Notes: generated by a model from the letters alone, not told the origin. 64,000 bases of DNA from an uncultured Omnitrophica bacterium (GCA_947085655.1 CAMTXH010000007.1:46085-110084), one strand, 5' to 3'. Positions 17,757 through 20,404 are shown, counted from the first letter of the stretch. Translations and numbers: made by a program.

Positions 17757-18665
17757 ATGGCTGTTAATCTCGAAGATGCGGCAATTCTCTATGAGGAAGC
17801 GACTGCACTCGTCAAGAAAGTATTCGACCAGGCAGGCCGGAATCAGCTGATTGACGGGAGGGAGATCAGTTCACTCGTCTGGCGGCTGGTTGAACATACG
17901 ACCCTGGGAGACCGGGGTCTTGTTTATTTTACGAACCGCGCAACCCCCCAGAATCTTCTCGTCTCCCAATCGGTCAATACCTGCATCCTTGCTTTGGTGA
18001 TCGGGATGGGCCTTCGATATGATACGGCAGAGCTCAACCAGTTAGGGGCCGCCGCGCTTTTACATAACATCGGAATGGTCCGACACCTTGAGACCATAGG
18101 ACTTCCGAGAAAACTCACCCCCCGCGAACTTGACGCAGTCCGCCAGCACCCTGTTGATGGAGAGGAGATTCTGAAAAAAGTCGGAGAGATTGAACCGGCC
18201 GTTCTTTTTGTTTGCCGGCACCAATACCGGAAAAGCTGGGAAGGGGTGACGGTTGCCCCCCACCAGACCCGATGGCAGGAGTACACCCAGATTGTGCGGC
18301 TGGTGGATATTTATGTGGCGATGACCCAGCCCCGTCCCTACCGGGAGCCCAAACTTTCGCATGAAGCGGTCCGCGAGCTGATCGGCGAATCTCACGATAT
18401 TTTTTCCACCCGTATCATGAAGACGTTGATTGACCAGATTGGAATTTATCCGATCGGCTCCTGGGTCCGTCTGAACACAGACGAAATCGCCCGTGTCGTG
18501 GAACCAAACCGGAATTTTCCCCTTCATCCGGTGGTAGAGGTTCTTTTTGACAATAGGGGGGAATCTGTCGACAGTCCCAAACAGTATAATCTTTACCAAC
18601 AGCGGATGATTTACATCAAGGAGCCGGTGGATTATCAGAAATTAAACCTCTTCGGTTCAAATTAA
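17757..18665 (+). CDS. HD-GYP-like domain protein with degenerate catalytic motifs (HD to HN, no GYP), probably non-catalytic
   Basis: HD-superfamily fold ('LAALLHNIGMVRH ... HPVDGEEIL ... RLVDIYVAMTQPRPYREP'). The metal-binding HD is HN (codon aac). The HHExxDGSGYP segment is replaced by 'HQYRKSWEGVTVAP'. Confidence 0.65.
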   Translation: MAVNLEDAAILYEEATALVKKVFDQAGRNQLIDGREISSLVWRLVEHTTLGDRGLVYFTNRATPQNLLVSQSVNTCILALVIGMGLRYDTAELNQLGAAALLHNIGMVRHLETIGLPRKLTPRELDAVRQHPVDGEEILKKVGEIEPAVLFVCRHQYRKSWEGVTVAPHQTRWQEYTQIVRLVDIYVAMTQPRPYREPKLSHEAVRELIGESHDIFSTRIMKTLIDQIGIYPIGSWVRLNTDEIARVVEPNRNFPLHPVVEVLFDNRGESVDSPKQYNLYQQRMIYIKEPVDYQKLNLFGSN

Positions 18666-18685
18666 TCAGGAAAGGGGGTGATCCA

Positions 18686-18859
18686 ATGAAACAGTTGGGC
18701 AATGTGCTTTTGGTGGTTGCCGGCGTGAGCTTGGTCGTCGGAATCATATCTCGGATGACCTTAAAGCCTCTTTTTGGGGGTTTGGAAGCGCAGGCATTCT
18801 TGCAGTTTTCTCAGACGCTTTTGTTGGCGGTGATTGCACTCTCCGTTATGAAGCAATAA
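18686..18859 (+). CDS. Small (57 aa) two-TM membrane protein, hypothetical
   Basis: Not in the ORF track (under 60 aa). ATG preceded by 'AAAGGGGGTG'. Sequence MKQLGNVLLVVAGVSLVVGIISRMTLKPLFGGLEAQAFLQFSQTLLLAVIALSVMKQ. Followed by a T-rich inverted repeat. Sits between the HD-GYP-like and GGDEF genes. Confidence 0.3.
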   Translation: MKQLGNVLLVVAGVSLVVGIISRMTLKPLFGGLEAQAFLQFSQTLLLAVIALSVMKQ

Positions 18860-18997
18860 GCCGTAAAGACTGATCCTTTTTTGCTTCAAAAAAAGAAGGG
18901 ATGTTTGGGGGTTCTTCTTAAAGCGACTTAAAATTTGTGAAATCAAAAATTAATTGCAGAGTCAAAAGGTGGCTTTCAAACTAGAGGGGGATGGGGG

Positions 18998-20404
18998 ATG
19001 CTGAAATCCTTGAGAAATATCTCCATGATGTCGAGGGGACTACGGTATAAGTTGGGCATCGCCTTCTTTTTGATGTCGCTCATCCCGCTTTTTGTCTTCA
19101 TGTTTTTCATTTTGGCTTATATCTATCCGGAAACCCGCTATCCCTTCACCATCGGTTCGACTCCGACGGTCATTATCATCGTCATTACTCTTTTCATCAC
19201 CCTGTTAGGATTTTTCCTTCTCCGGGAAATTGTCGACCCGGTCTTGACCATTGCCCGGCAGGCGAAGGAGGTGGCTCAAGGAGCCATGGATACCTCTTTC
19301 GAGATCGGGCGGGAAGATGAAATCGGCGATTTGAGCGACTCGCTGAATAAAATGACCTCTCGTATCCGGGATACGATTAACGAACTCCGGATCTACGGCG
19401 AGAAGACCAAAGAAATCAACATCGAAATTCACCGGAAGGTCTTGACCCTCTCCAACCTTCTTCAAATCGGAAACCTGATTTCGGCGGGAGCATCCCTGGA
19501 GGAGGTGGTTAAGGAAGTTTCCGAAAAACTGGGCCAGCTTGAGATTGCTGCCTCTTCTTTTATCTATCTTCAAGATTCTCCCAAGGTCCTGAGCCTTCAG
19601 GTTGCTTACCAACTTTCGGAGAAAACCCTTCCCTCAAGGATTATGTTTGGAGAGACCCTTCTCGGCGAATTGGCCGGTCAGGGAGAATCTCTCATCTATG
19701 ACAGCACAACCAGGGGAGGAGTGGGGTTGAAAGAGTTCAAATACAATCTGAAGCTGGAGAATCTGGCCGTTTTCCCGGTGACCTCTCGGGGATCGGTGGT
19801 TGGTCTTTTGGGGACCGGAAACACGCTGCAGCATTTCAAATATAAGCCGGAGGATCTGGAGACTCTGAAGGTCTTTGTGAAACAGGTTTCTCTCGCCTAT
19901 GAAAATGATCTTCTCTCGAAGAGGGCGAAGGAACTGGAGGTGCGGGACGACCTCACCGGTCTTTATAACGAAAAATTCACCCACCAGCGGCTCGATGAGG
20001 AGATCAAACGGGCGATTCACTATCAGAGACCCTGTTCGTTGATTTTGGTGGATGTCGATAATTTTGAGGGAGTGGAGGAGAGGCATCAGGGGAATCTTCT
20101 CAAGCTGGTGGCACGGGAACTGGAAGGCTTTATGACGGATGCCGATCGGGCGGCACGTCTTGAGCGGGACCGGTTTGCGTTGATTGTGCCGGAACGGAAT
20201 AAACGCGAGGCGACGCAGTTGGCCGAGACGCTCCGGCGCCGGATGGAGGAAAAGGGAAGAGGATTTCATGGAACTTCCGTAACAGTCAGCGCCGGTGTGG
20301 CCGAGAACCCGATTGACGGTTCAAGCGCGGAGGAACTCTTGCAGAAAGCGCAGGATGCCCTGGCAAGCGCCAAATCTCTGGGAAAAAATCGCGTCGGAAC
20401 GTAA
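18998..20404 (+). CDS. Membrane-anchored HAMP-GAF-like-GGDEF protein with degenerate active site (GGDEF to ERDRF)
   Basis: Two N-terminal TM helices. HAMP ('IARQAKEVAQGAMDTSFEIGREDEIGDLSDSLNKMTSRI'). A central GAF-like region. C-terminal GGDEF fold ('DDLTGLYNEKFTHQRLDEEI ... LILVDVDNFEGVEE ... ARLERDRFALIVPE'). The GG(D/E)EF pentad reads ERDRF (nt ctt gag cgg gac cgg ttt). Confidence 0.7.
   Translation: MLKSLRNISMMSRGLRYKLGIAFFLMSLIPLFVFMFFILAYIYPETRYPFTIGSTPTVIIIVITLFITLLGFFLLREIVDPVLTIARQAKEVAQGAMDTSFEIGREDEIGDLSDSLNKMTSRIRDTINELRIYGEKTKEINIEIHRKVLTLSNLLQIGNLISAGASLEEVVKEVSEKLGQLEIAASSFIYLQDSPKVLSLQVAYQLSEKTLPSRIMFGETLLGELAGQGESLIYDSTTRGGVGLKEFKYNLKLENLAVFPVTSRGSVVGLLGTGNTLQHFKYKPEDLETLKVFVKQVSLAYENDLLSKRAKELEVRDDLTGLYNEKFTHQRLDEEIKRAIHYQRPCSLILVDVDNFEGVEERHQGNLLKLVARELEGFMTDADRAARLERDRFALIVPERNKREATQLAETLRRRMEEKGRGFHGTSVTVSAGVAENPIDGSSAEELLQKAQDALASAKSLGKNRVGT

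Follow-up and report, generated by a model that had tools for sequence, protein, structure and literature searches.

What is the role of two degenerate members of c-di-GMP enzyme families, an HD-GYP protein and a GGDEF protein, that are encoded directly upstream of a type IV pilus operon? The question arises from a 64,000-nt stretch of DNA from an uncultured Omnitrophica bacterium (the window, hereafter), where an ORF check places both genes co-oriented on the + strand (Table 1). We refer to the two proteins as dHD-GYP and dGGDEF, where the prefix denotes the loss of catalytic residues.

Table 1. Positions of the genes and sites discussed in the text, counted from the first letter of the window.
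Feature	Position	Strand	Basis or remark
WecA/MraY-like GT4 initiating glycosyltransferase	16600..17691	+	PF00953 115.9 bits; TIGR02380 92.8 bits, under its cut-off
dHD-GYP protein, 302 aa	17757..18665	+	HD_5 profile, alignments, structure model
dHD-GYP Q71 codon	17967..17969	+	site of the first metal-binding His (HSxxV) in canonical domains
dHD-GYP H103-N104 (CAT AAC), replacing the HD dyad	18063..18068	+	AAC = 18066-18068
dHD-GYP H155-Q-Y ... E162-G-V-T-V-A-P168, replacing HHExxDGxGYP	18219..18260	+	alignments
dHD-GYP small C-terminal barrel of five beta strands, residues ~226-302, 'IGIYPIGSWV...'	18432..18662	+	
57-aa two-TM micro-protein gene	18686..18859	+	conservation, hydrophobic segments
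Intergenic gap, 138 nt	18860..18997	+	PilZ gene at the same place in the sister clade
dGGDEF protein (2TM-HAMP-coiled coil-GAF-dGGDEF), 468 aa	18998..20404	+	Pfam, alignments
dGGDEF T380-D-A-D383 (I-site RxxD position) to E389-R-D-R-F393 (A-site GG[DE]EF position)	20135..20176	+	PleD alignment, family tables
PilT retraction ATPase	20416..21501	+	TIGR01420 486 bits vs cut-off 319
Free-standing MshEN domain protein, 152 aa	21523..21981	+	PF05157 77.7 bits; NF053729 63.6 bits
PilB-type extension ATPases, two in tandem, both with MshEN at the N-terminus	21985-23700, 23700-25400	+	NF053729 46.6, 46.5 bits
PilC platform protein	25400..26611	+	Pfam

The GT4 gene upstream of the pair is the final gene of a Wzy-type glycan cluster (216-17691). 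On the other side, pilT starts 11 nt downstream of the dGGDEF gene, and the genes after pilC, up to position 33788, encode a GT-C/PMT_2-TPR membrane protein and two pilins, then PilM, a probable PilN that has no match in Pfam, PilO and the secretin PilQ. The PilT and the three MshEN domains that the first-pass annotation had placed here are borne out by their profile scores, and all three MshEN N-termini exceed the cut-off of the NF053729 c-di-GMP-motif model (38 bits); these domains are likely the c-di-GMP sensors proper of this pilus machine. The operon structure is not firm, because promoter and terminator scans found sites no more numerous than in shuffled sequence.

The dGGDEF protein begins with two TM helices separated by a ~12-residue outer loop, continues through a HAMP domain (73-125), a highly conserved coiled-coil linker and a GAF domain (165-300), and ends three residues past its GGDEF domain (316-465), with no EAL domain detected by Pfam. 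The GGDEF domain itself scores 91.3 bits against PF00990 (cut-off 23.8) and 89.9 bits against TIGR00254. When aligned to PleD, the protein carries ERDRF (389-393) at the A-site, where an active cyclase has GG[DE]EF with A or S tolerated at the first position, and T380-D-A-D383 at the I-site, five residues upstream, where RxxD is expected. At the guanine-binding positions, PleD N335 is replaced by E, and a four-residue deletion removes the D344 loop. The protein retains D352-V-D354, and D354 does not vary among 31 sequences; D391, which occupies the third position of the motif and is a metal ligand in PleD, is retained too.

These losses extend to its relatives. The degenerate motif [DE][RKH]D[LRI]F is found in 16 of 16 close homologues, while [GAS]G[DE]EF occurs in none of those 16, in 26 of 104 wider homologues and in 8 of 80 metagenome loci (34 of 200 relatives); some of the wider relatives read SGDEF, AGDEF or GGDEF. 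The I-site arginine position is occupied by T in 16/16 close homologues and by T or S in 95/104 wider ones; the arginine is present in one of the 80 metagenome loci and absent from 199 of the 200 relatives. The PleD N335 position is R or H in 87/104 wider homologues, and base-binding positions are changed in nearly all of 120 aligned homologues. With the arginine of the I-site and the glycines of the A-site gone, and likewise the residues that PleD has at N335 and D344, no known nucleotide site is left, and dGGDEF is unlikely to be a c-di-GMP sensor. The dead GGDEF domain is nevertheless more conserved than the sensor domains: there, close and wide homologues are 70% and 49% identical to the window protein, compared to 51% and 28% for GAF and 61% and 45% for HAMP.

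The dHD-GYP protein matches HD_5 (PF13487) with 39.6 bits (cut-off 27.2). Its predicted structure (pLDDT 85.9) matches DvhD (9rbz), PmGH (4mcw), Bd1817 (3tm8) and PA4781 (4r8z) with a Foldseek probability of 1.0, and the best global match is Bd1817 (TM-score 0.58-0.60). The model consists of N-terminal helices, an HD-GYP fold that lacks the GYP loop and most metal ligands, and, at the C-terminus, an SH3/Tudor/KOW-like beta-barrel. The barrel is common to catalytically intact relatives and holds many of the family-conserved positions.

We mapped the lost residues by alignment to PmGH and relatives, comparing the MAFFT and phmmer registers. Against the metal ligands of active phosphodiesterases, H...HD...H...HH...D, the protein has Q71, H103-N104, H131, H155-Q156 and D184, so that H131 and D184 are retained. 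The HHE site corresponds to H155-Q156-Y157 in the MAFFT register or to Y157-R158 in the phmmer register, and no more than one member of the HH pair can remain. The HHExxDGxGYP motif reads HQYRKSWEGVTVAP, with DGxGYP changed to EGVTVAP, and the lysine of HDxGK is replaced by M107. The substitutions listed in the first-pass annotation (HN for HD, HQY ... EGVTVAP for HHE ... DGSGYP, and ERDRF with no RxxD) are all confirmed, within domains that match their Pfam families above cut-off.

Conservation separates these substitutions into two kinds. The degenerate GGDEF motif recurs in all 16 close homologues of dGGDEF, and the losses of the first His, the HH pair and GYP recur in 16 of 16 dHD-GYP orthologues: in the latter, the first-His site is Q or K throughout (H in most distant relatives), and the HHE...GYP site reads REH/REY ... 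with GYP missing. Every orthologue retains the HD dyad, however, together with one His of the HH pair, H131 and D184; the HN change is therefore private to this genome. The identical HN protein is found on six contigs in NCBI and Logan assemblies, which, together with the motif losses across orthologues, argues against both chance and assembly error.

Gene order ties dGGDEF to the pilus. The dGGDEF gene heads a type IV pilus operon in ~70 related loci (Omnitrophota wherever named), all but one of those with readable downstream sequence. It is followed by PilT-MshEN-PilB-PilB or MshEN-PilB-PilB in the window and in L001, L003, L005, L006, L011, L007-L009, L090 and L091, and the same pilus genes lie downstream in 61 of 62 metagenome loci with room for them. 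The free-standing MshEN protein is the best conserved gene of the locus (79-89% identical to orthologues) and is present in every related locus that reaches far enough downstream. Most loci of the dGGDEF family lack this HD-GYP protein, and so the pair is not obligate. The earlier claim that both proteins are dedicated to one pilus machine consequently stands for dGGDEF but not for an obligate pairing with dHD-GYP. Since its catalytic residues are gone and its gene leads this operon throughout the Omnitrophota sampled, dGGDEF most likely acts on the pilus through contacts with proteins, not through chemistry.

The dHD-GYP protein has a different history. Its wider family, marked by the 'IGIYPIGS' barrel, lies directly after a TIGR03015-like, ExeA-like AAA_22 ATPase in ~60 of 80 genome loci, which span many phyla, and near a GT4 gene in at least 10, about a dozen, loci only (the homologue is upstream in L001, L003, L005, L006, L011, L015, L017, L036, L044 and L090). 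Judged from these neighborhoods, the family is ancestrally tied to the AAA_22 ATPase and a WecA-like GT4. That this family is much more often tied to the ATPase than to pili counts against a pilus role. In the clade of the window, dHD-GYP is co-linear with dGGDEF in every locus recovered, and the same clade has the additional 4-aa dGGDEF deletion; dHD-GYP and the micro-protein are evidently a clade-specific addition.

The 57-aa micro-ORF, already described as a two-TM protein in the first-pass annotation, is by its conservation a real gene: it has two hydrophobic segments, and its sequences across five loci are 64-72% identical with 27 of 57 positions invariant, although it has no Pfam or NCBIfam match. 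It accompanies the HD-GYP gene and not the GGDEF gene, as it is also found downstream of distant HD-GYP homologues in L015, L017, L036 and L044. In a sister clade (L090, L091), a 112-113-aa PilZ gene lies between the micro-ORF and the dGGDEF gene, and in L017 the order is HD-GYP - micro - rSAM - PilZ - HAMP-GGDEF - MshEN - PilB. Neither PilZ nor a remnant of it was detectable in the 138-nt gap or elsewhere in the window.

These neighborhoods give weight to an alternative, unlikely but deserving attention, where dHD-GYP and the micro-protein would serve the upstream surface-glycan/EPS cluster, for example as regulators of the WecA-like initiating transferase or of an ExeA-like ATPase; only dGGDEF would then be a pilus regulator, and the adjacency would be that of two abutting clusters. 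Besides the ancestral linkage to the ATPase and GT4 and the glycan cluster that ends next to the pair, L036 and L044 carry GT4 - AAA_22 x3 - HD-GYP - micro, after which come NadE and GlnA but no pilus genes, and in L004 the HD-GYP gene follows a ParA/BY-kinase-like gene and an AAA_22 gene, with sugar-modifying genes further along the locus. However, three arrangements lie directly upstream of the pilus operon (the clade of the window, L090/L091 with PilZ, and L017 with rSAM-PilZ), the AAA_22 partner is absent throughout the 64-kb window, and the degeneration of dHD-GYP coincides with the most degenerate dGGDEF clade. The pilus locus also includes the GT-C/PMT_2-TPR protein, and so a single system may cover both the glycan and the pilus functions.

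A second alternative, which we consider improbable, retains c-di-GMP as the ligand of both proteins and regards them as a dedicated sensor pair for one pilus machine. Each is a degenerate member of a c-di-GMP enzyme family and is encoded beside pilT and the MshEN genes, and the degenerate GGDEF domains of PelD and PopA are proven c-di-GMP receptors. So is the metal-free HD-GYP protein DvhD of Desulfovibrio vulgaris (PDB 9rbz; HD changed to SQ, HH to MN), which has sub-micromolar affinity for c-di-GMP and leaves it unhydrolyzed (PMC13090378, PMC10990149). Out of eight DvhD contact residues (L577, K582, Y621, M646, R650, Y652, R653 and E668), dHD-GYP retains five, as L102 before the dyad and M189, R193, Y195 and R196 in the AM..RPxYR segment; the counterpart of E668 is ambiguous (E211 or S212). 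By this analogy, c-di-GMP binding by dHD-GYP is possible. What counts against it is that DvhD keeps the HDxGK lysine (K582) and the GYP tyrosine (Y621), both of which contact phosphate, whereas dHD-GYP has M107 at the first position and lost the second with the GYP loop. DvhD is also a LapD-like, inside-out receptor (dCache-TM-PAS-HD-GYP) that controls a periplasmic protease, unlike the soluble, single-domain dHD-GYP with its SH3-like tail beside a pilus operon. For dGGDEF, the case is weaker: GGDEF receptors of the PelD, PopA and SgmT type use the I-site RxxD, the arginine of which is missing here and in nearly all relatives, its A-site is destroyed too, and most dGGDEF loci do without the HD-GYP partner.

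It is very improbable that one or both proteins remain enzymatic through non-canonical residues, for example as a divergent cyclase with another nucleotide as its product or as a mononuclear HD phosphohydrolase. The aspartates retained in dGGDEF, the canonical motifs of some wider relatives, and the HD dyad and other ligands kept by dHD-GYP orthologues are consistent with residual activity. However, the GGDEF motif has lost its two glycines and its fourth-position Glu, to replacements that differ among orthologues, unlike a catalytic loop; the base-binding positions are altered and the D344 loop deleted; and dHD-GYP is without the dyad Asp and the first His, whose loss also breaks the minimal H..HD..D motif. 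Nor is it credible, beyond a very slight chance, that both genes are functionless, decaying remnants, even though dHD-GYP has diverged ~1.5x faster relative to PilB than its orthologues, which could be relaxed constraint, and has 12 changes at sites invariant in eight orthologues: neither ORF is truncated or frameshifted in any locus, both proteins are 57-71% identical to orthologues over their whole length, the dead domain of dGGDEF is more conserved than its sensor domains, and its gene has been kept at the operon head in ~70 loci. The combination of lost catalytic residues with intact, conserved proteins supports the reading, made in the first-pass annotation, that these are pseudo-enzymes and not a cyclase/phosphodiesterase pair, and indicates that selection maintains both; a role of the pseudo-enzymes in regulating the pilus is likewise supported.

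How a dead GGDEF domain could act by contact is illustrated by known systems. In Xanthomonas campestris, RpfG (HD-GYP), XC_0249/XC_0420 (GGDEF) and XC_2249 (PilZ) form a complex that acts on PilT/PilU, and, in the work of Ryan et al. [quoted passage not shown] The Omnitrophota loci combine the same protein classes in what would be type IV pilus control: HD-GYP, GGDEF and PilT genes are adjacent in the window, where PilZ is absent, and the order HD-GYP - micro - PilZ - GGDEF - PilT in the sister clade evidently reproduces the gene set of the Xanthomonas complex. The Xanthomonas RpfG, GGDEF and PilZ genes, in contrast, are presumably dispersed in the genome. The Xanthomonas enzymes are active, whereas both Omnitrophota domains are dead, accompanied by an SH3-like barrel and a 2TM micro-protein. 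Counting against an adaptor role for dHD-GYP, the GYP that RpfG needs for binding its GGDEF partners is missing, there is no REC domain as in RpfG, and the window has no PilZ.

FimX (REC-PAS-GGDEF-EAL, with both output domains degenerate), acting with PilZ and PilB in Pseudomonas and Xanthomonas, provides a second precedent (PMC11656802, PMC5595344). It too has a degenerate GGDEF (GDSIF) within a multidomain sensor and regulates pilus assembly by binding a motor ATPase. FimX senses c-di-GMP via its EAL domain, however, and the remnant GGDEF domain may have kept GTP binding, while dGGDEF has no EAL, a 2TM-HAMP membrane anchor, a GAF sensor and a gene at the head of the pilus operon. Among inactive HD-GYP variants with regulatory roles or of unknown function, PA2572 of P. 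aeruginosa (YN-GYP) also carries N where the dyad Asp should be, but keeps GYP and has a REC domain, and Bd1817 of Bdellovibrio keeps HD and the metal site without the GYP Tyr; no pilus operon or GGDEF pseudo-enzyme is linked to either of them. The MshEN domains of MshE and PilB are c-di-GMP receptors (Wang et al. 2016, as cited in PMC11656802). By their motif scores the three MshEN N-termini of the window resemble them, although one belongs to a free-standing protein. We know of no functional characterization of that form.

From the domain identities, the lost residues, their conservation and the gene order, we infer a mechanism that, taken as a whole, we regard as about evenly poised between right and wrong: dGGDEF is a contact regulator of the pilus motors, and dHD-GYP a membrane-tethered adaptor. 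The dGGDEF protein would be a membrane-anchored signal transducer, the output domain of which neither makes c-di-GMP nor binds it at the I-site. It would touch the motor proteins encoded next (PilT, the free-standing MshEN protein and the two PilBs), and this contact would set the balance between pilus extension and retraction. The three MshEN domains would read c-di-GMP, the synthesis of which would have to be encoded elsewhere in the genome. The dHD-GYP protein descends from the AAA_22-following family, found in several loci beside glycan-synthesis genes; here its gene and that of the two-TM micro-protein separate the surface-glycan cluster from the pilus operon, with PilZ added in the sister clade. 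Tethered to the membrane, dHD-GYP would join the dGGDEF/PilT complex, as in the Xanthomonas RpfG-GGDEF-PilZ-PilT/PilU system, and may still bind c-di-GMP in a metal-free pocket like that of DvhD.

Many Omnitrophota are very small cells, possibly host-dependent or predatory. A broader and doubtful reading is that their pilus is run by a hard-wired, largely enzyme-free c-di-GMP module; equally tentative are its parts, that a dead GGDEF transducer, present in every related locus sampled, works with a free-standing MshEN protein to gate PilT and PilB, and that one clade recruited a dead HD-GYP protein, a 2TM micro-protein and PilZ. If true, the module would amount to the RpfG-GGDEF-PilZ-PilT complex in genetically fixed form, and surface-glycan synthesis would be physically coupled to pilus dynamics.

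The alignments show that, as far as the sequence tells, both catalytic centres are destroyed, and that both pseudo-enzyme genes are maintained. Profile and fold comparisons place both proteins in their superfamilies, but neither has the catalytic or I-site motifs. The HD-GYP-fold protein scores 39.6 bits against Pfam HD_5 (cut-off 27.2), and its AlphaFold model (pLDDT 85.9) matches the solved HD-GYP domains DvhD, PmGH, Bd1817 and PA4781. Aligned to PmGH and its relatives, the protein has Q71 in place of the first histidine, H103-N104 in place of the HD dyad (codon AAC), M107 in place of the HDxGK lysine, HQY in place of HHE (phmmer and MAFFT place it two residues apart) and EGVTVAP in place of DGxGYP; H131 and D184 are retained. 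The HN dyad and the replaced HHE to GYP segment, both reported in the first-pass annotation, are thus confirmed.

The substitutions are only partly a shared trait. The first histidine, the HH pair and the GYP loop are lost in all 16 orthologues (49-65% identity), but the HD dyad is kept in every one of them, and D104N is therefore private to the window genome. An assembly error is ruled out and D104N is real, because the identical protein occurs on six contigs. Since synonymous sites are saturated at ~60-70% amino-acid identity, we used relative protein divergence in place of dN/dS. Relative to PilB1, the window copy has diverged ~1.5-fold, compared to 1.06-1.17 for orthologue pairs at equal PilB1 distance, and it carries 12 changes at positions invariant across eight orthologues, including D104N and E155H. 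Close orthologues occur in only two GTDB species representatives.

The GGDEF protein begins with two transmembrane segments (Kyte-Doolittle). Aligned to PleD, its GGEEF reads ERDRF and its RAID reads TDAD, as expected from the earlier reading of a lost GG(D/E)EF site without RxxD; a glutamate occupies the N335 position and four residues are deleted at the D344 site. All 16 close homologues show the pattern [DE][RKH]D[LRI]F together with the deletion. In a wider set of 104 full-length homologues (40-47% identity), [GAS]G[DE]EF occurs in only 26, R or H stands at the N335 position in 87, and the I-site arginine is absent throughout; a further 80 metagenome loci contain eight canonical motifs and one I-site arginine. 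The dead GGDEF domain (70% identity to the window protein in close homologues, 49% in wider ones) is more conserved than both the GAF domain (51% and 28%) and HAMP, which argues for a retained, non-catalytic function.

Genes and gene clusters around the degenerate pair, in window coordinates
Feature	Position	Strand	Evidence
Wzy-type surface-glycan cluster	216-17691		
ORF in glycan cluster, 421 aa	11930-13195		no Pfam match
WecA/MraY-like GT4	16600-17691	+	profile match
HD_5 protein, 302 aa (degenerate HD-GYP)	17757-18665	+	Pfam
Micro-ORF, 57 aa	18686-18859	+	ORF listing
HAMP-GAF-GGDEF protein, 468 aa (degenerate GGDEF)	18998-20404	+	Pfam
PilT	20416-21501	+	TIGR01420, 486 bits
Free-standing MshEN protein, 152 aa	21523-21981	+	Pfam, NCBIfam
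MshEN-PilB ATPases, two	21985-23700, 23700-25400	+	Pfam
PilC	25400-26611	+	Pfam
PMT_2/TPR membrane protein	26406-28295	+	
ORF in PilN position, 224 aa (probable PilN)	30612-31286	+	no Pfam match
Two pilins, PilM, PilO, PilQ secretin	up to 33788	+	

All genes from 16600 to 33788 lie on the + strand. Identical proteins are found in GCA_964374045.1 (contig CAYJWX010000002.1), and all homologues with a name come from Candidatus Omnitrophota MAGs. We use 'operon' for the pilus locus in a predicted sense; a promoter and terminator scan of 15900-21600 gave counts not above those of shuffled sequence. Visual inspection shows a TTGACA at ~17705 and a good Shine-Dalgarno before all three ORFs, on which we place no weight.

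The degenerate GGDEF gene is firmly linked to the pilus ATPase genes. The order GGDEF - (PilT) - MshEN - PilB - PilB - PilC (module A) occurs in the window clade, in three distant loci with upstream neighbours MreBCD-PBP2-RodA, and in 61 of the 62 metagenome loci whose sequence continues far enough downstream (PilT is present in 32 of these and missing from 29). The first-pass annotation had taken the pair as apparently dedicated to one pilus machine; this holds for the GGDEF protein, but there are two modules, and most module A loci have no degenerate HD-GYP gene. The MshEN domains match the c-di-GMP motif. The free-standing MshEN protein (63.6 bits, cut-off 38) is the locus's best conserved gene (79-89% identity), and stands between GGDEF/PilT and PilB in every related locus reaching far enough downstream. 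The two PilB paralogues, each full-length and with its own MshEN, share one base between stop and start codons at 23700; every related locus that reaches far enough has this duplication. The usual upstream neighbour of the degenerate GGDEF gene in Omnitrophota is a Radical_SAM_N2/Radical_SAM gene (L007 5974-7722; 66 of the 80 loci L092-L171), and in the window clade the glycan cluster and HD-GYP module stand in its place. One Omnitrophota MAG (GCA_974320455.1) encodes a 1369-aa GGDEF-AAA_16-HEAT protein between PilT and the free-standing MshEN gene (L009 10558-14667).

In 15 loci of a different, PilT-less subgroup, an HD-GYP gene directly follows the second PilB gene (L108, L123, L127, L141, L144, L148, L150, L151, L154, L155, L160, L165, L167, L169 and L170). 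Several copies are incomplete at the locus end; in those complete within the locus, the scored motifs are all intact (HS..HDLGK..H..HHEHYDGxGYP..D), and the GGDEF gene at the head of the operon remains degenerate (GDDEF or GDNEF). Because this separate subgroup bears a canonical HD-GYP after PilB2, c-di-GMP genes have been repeatedly recruited to the pilus operon.

The degenerate HD-GYP gene and the micro-ORF form a second module (module B). The micro-ORF lies between the co-oriented genes and encodes two hydrophobic transmembrane segments (Kyte-Doolittle), as first annotated; it is 64-72% identical between loci, with 27 invariant residues, and matches no Pfam or NCBIfam family. In L015, L017, L036 and L044, each with GT4 upstream, it is found after HD-GYP homologues that are more distant and still look canonical, and its partnership therefore predates the degeneration. 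Module B precedes module A in three arrangements: the window clade; the sister clade L090/L091, with a 112-113-aa PilZ gene between micro-ORF and GGDEF; and L017, ordered HD-GYP - micro - rSAM - PilZ - HAMP-GGDEF - MshEN - PilB. These small PilZ genes (112-126 aa) immediately precede the GGDEF gene (L090 2288-2629, L091 441-779, L017 5370-5750), and the L090 protein has RxxxR, with TLSEGG replacing [DN]xSxxG. No PilZ remnant was found in the window's 138-nt gap or in the whole window (tblastn E > 0.2); judged from sequence, the PilZ gene is lost in the window clade.

The wider HD-GYP family of module B, with a C-terminal 'IGIYPIGS' SH3-like barrel, directly follows a ~270-aa ExeA-like AAA_22 ATPase in ~60 of 80 loci (L012-L089, e.g. 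L021 7069-7884 and 7851-8936; L036 1672-5378), in Omnitrophota, anammox Planctomycetota, NC10, Nitrospirota, Elusimicrobia, Tectomicrobia and others. Its closest profile for the ATPase is TIGR03015 (XrtA/PEP-CTERM-associated ATPase; 216-226 bits, below cut-off). The pair looks like a conserved two-gene module, for which we know of no published function. The distant paralogue P0019, on a 1.14-Mb Omnitrophota chromosome, differs in synteny: a ParA-like gene and AAA_22 precede it, and the locus also contains sugar-modifying genes at a greater distance. Within the 64-kb window there is no AAA_22 partner and no second GGDEF or HD-GYP gene.

Degenerate HD-GYP domains (PA2572, Bd1817, DvhD) and a degenerate GGDEF pilus regulator (FimX) are already known; unlike FimX, the window proteins have no EAL domain. 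Cyclase activity is not needed for regulation by the Xanthomonas RpfG-GGDEF-PilZ-PilT/U complex (PMC3749722). The likeness is in gene content only, as the window set lacks GYP and REC, and PilZ is missing from this window. In DvhD, the HD-GYP receptor is metal-free (PMC13090378); the degenerate HD-GYP protein keeps five of the eight contact residues of DvhD, but not K582 and Y621. None of the papers searched describes this operon architecture in Omnitrophota.

We propose that the GGDEF protein would be a membrane-anchored HAMP-GAF transducer, whose dead GGDEF domain would dock on PilT, MshEN or PilB to control extension versus retraction, and that the HD-GYP protein, tethered by the micro-protein, would join as an adaptor. 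As the main rival, the HD-GYP protein may really serve the upstream glycan cluster (Wzy_C, a MurJ/Wzx-like flippase, GT1/2/4/9 transferases, methyltransferases, WbqC, DegT and PIG-L), as favoured by its linkage to AAA_22 and GT4. Glycan and pilus may also be one system, given the GT-C/TPR protein within the pilus locus itself. This PMT_2 (GT-C glycosyltransferase) membrane protein with C-terminal TPR, between PilC and the pilin genes, has a listed start overlapping pilC and a true start probably later; together with the glycan cluster, it points to a coupling of pilin or surface glycosylation with the pilus locus. The positional counterparts of the cluster's 421-aa ORF in L001 and L003 are PHP-domain genes.

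Degenerate GGDEF and HD-GYP domains are common, and their role and partners are rarely clear. Here the wiring is unusually explicit: a dead GGDEF transducer leads a pilus operon in ~70 independent loci, and one clade adds a dead HD-GYP, a micro-protein and PilZ in line with it and with PilT. To our knowledge, HD-GYP/GGDEF/PilZ contact complexes on pilus motors have so far been reported only in Xanthomonas; our comparative evidence indicates that they may be widespread, and names candidate partners. Further questions arise from the free-standing MshEN protein and from the AAA_22 and HD-GYP module, which spans many phyla. The locus also gives an entry to pilus regulation in Omnitrophota, for which we know of no genetic system and whose pili are thought important for host or prey attachment.
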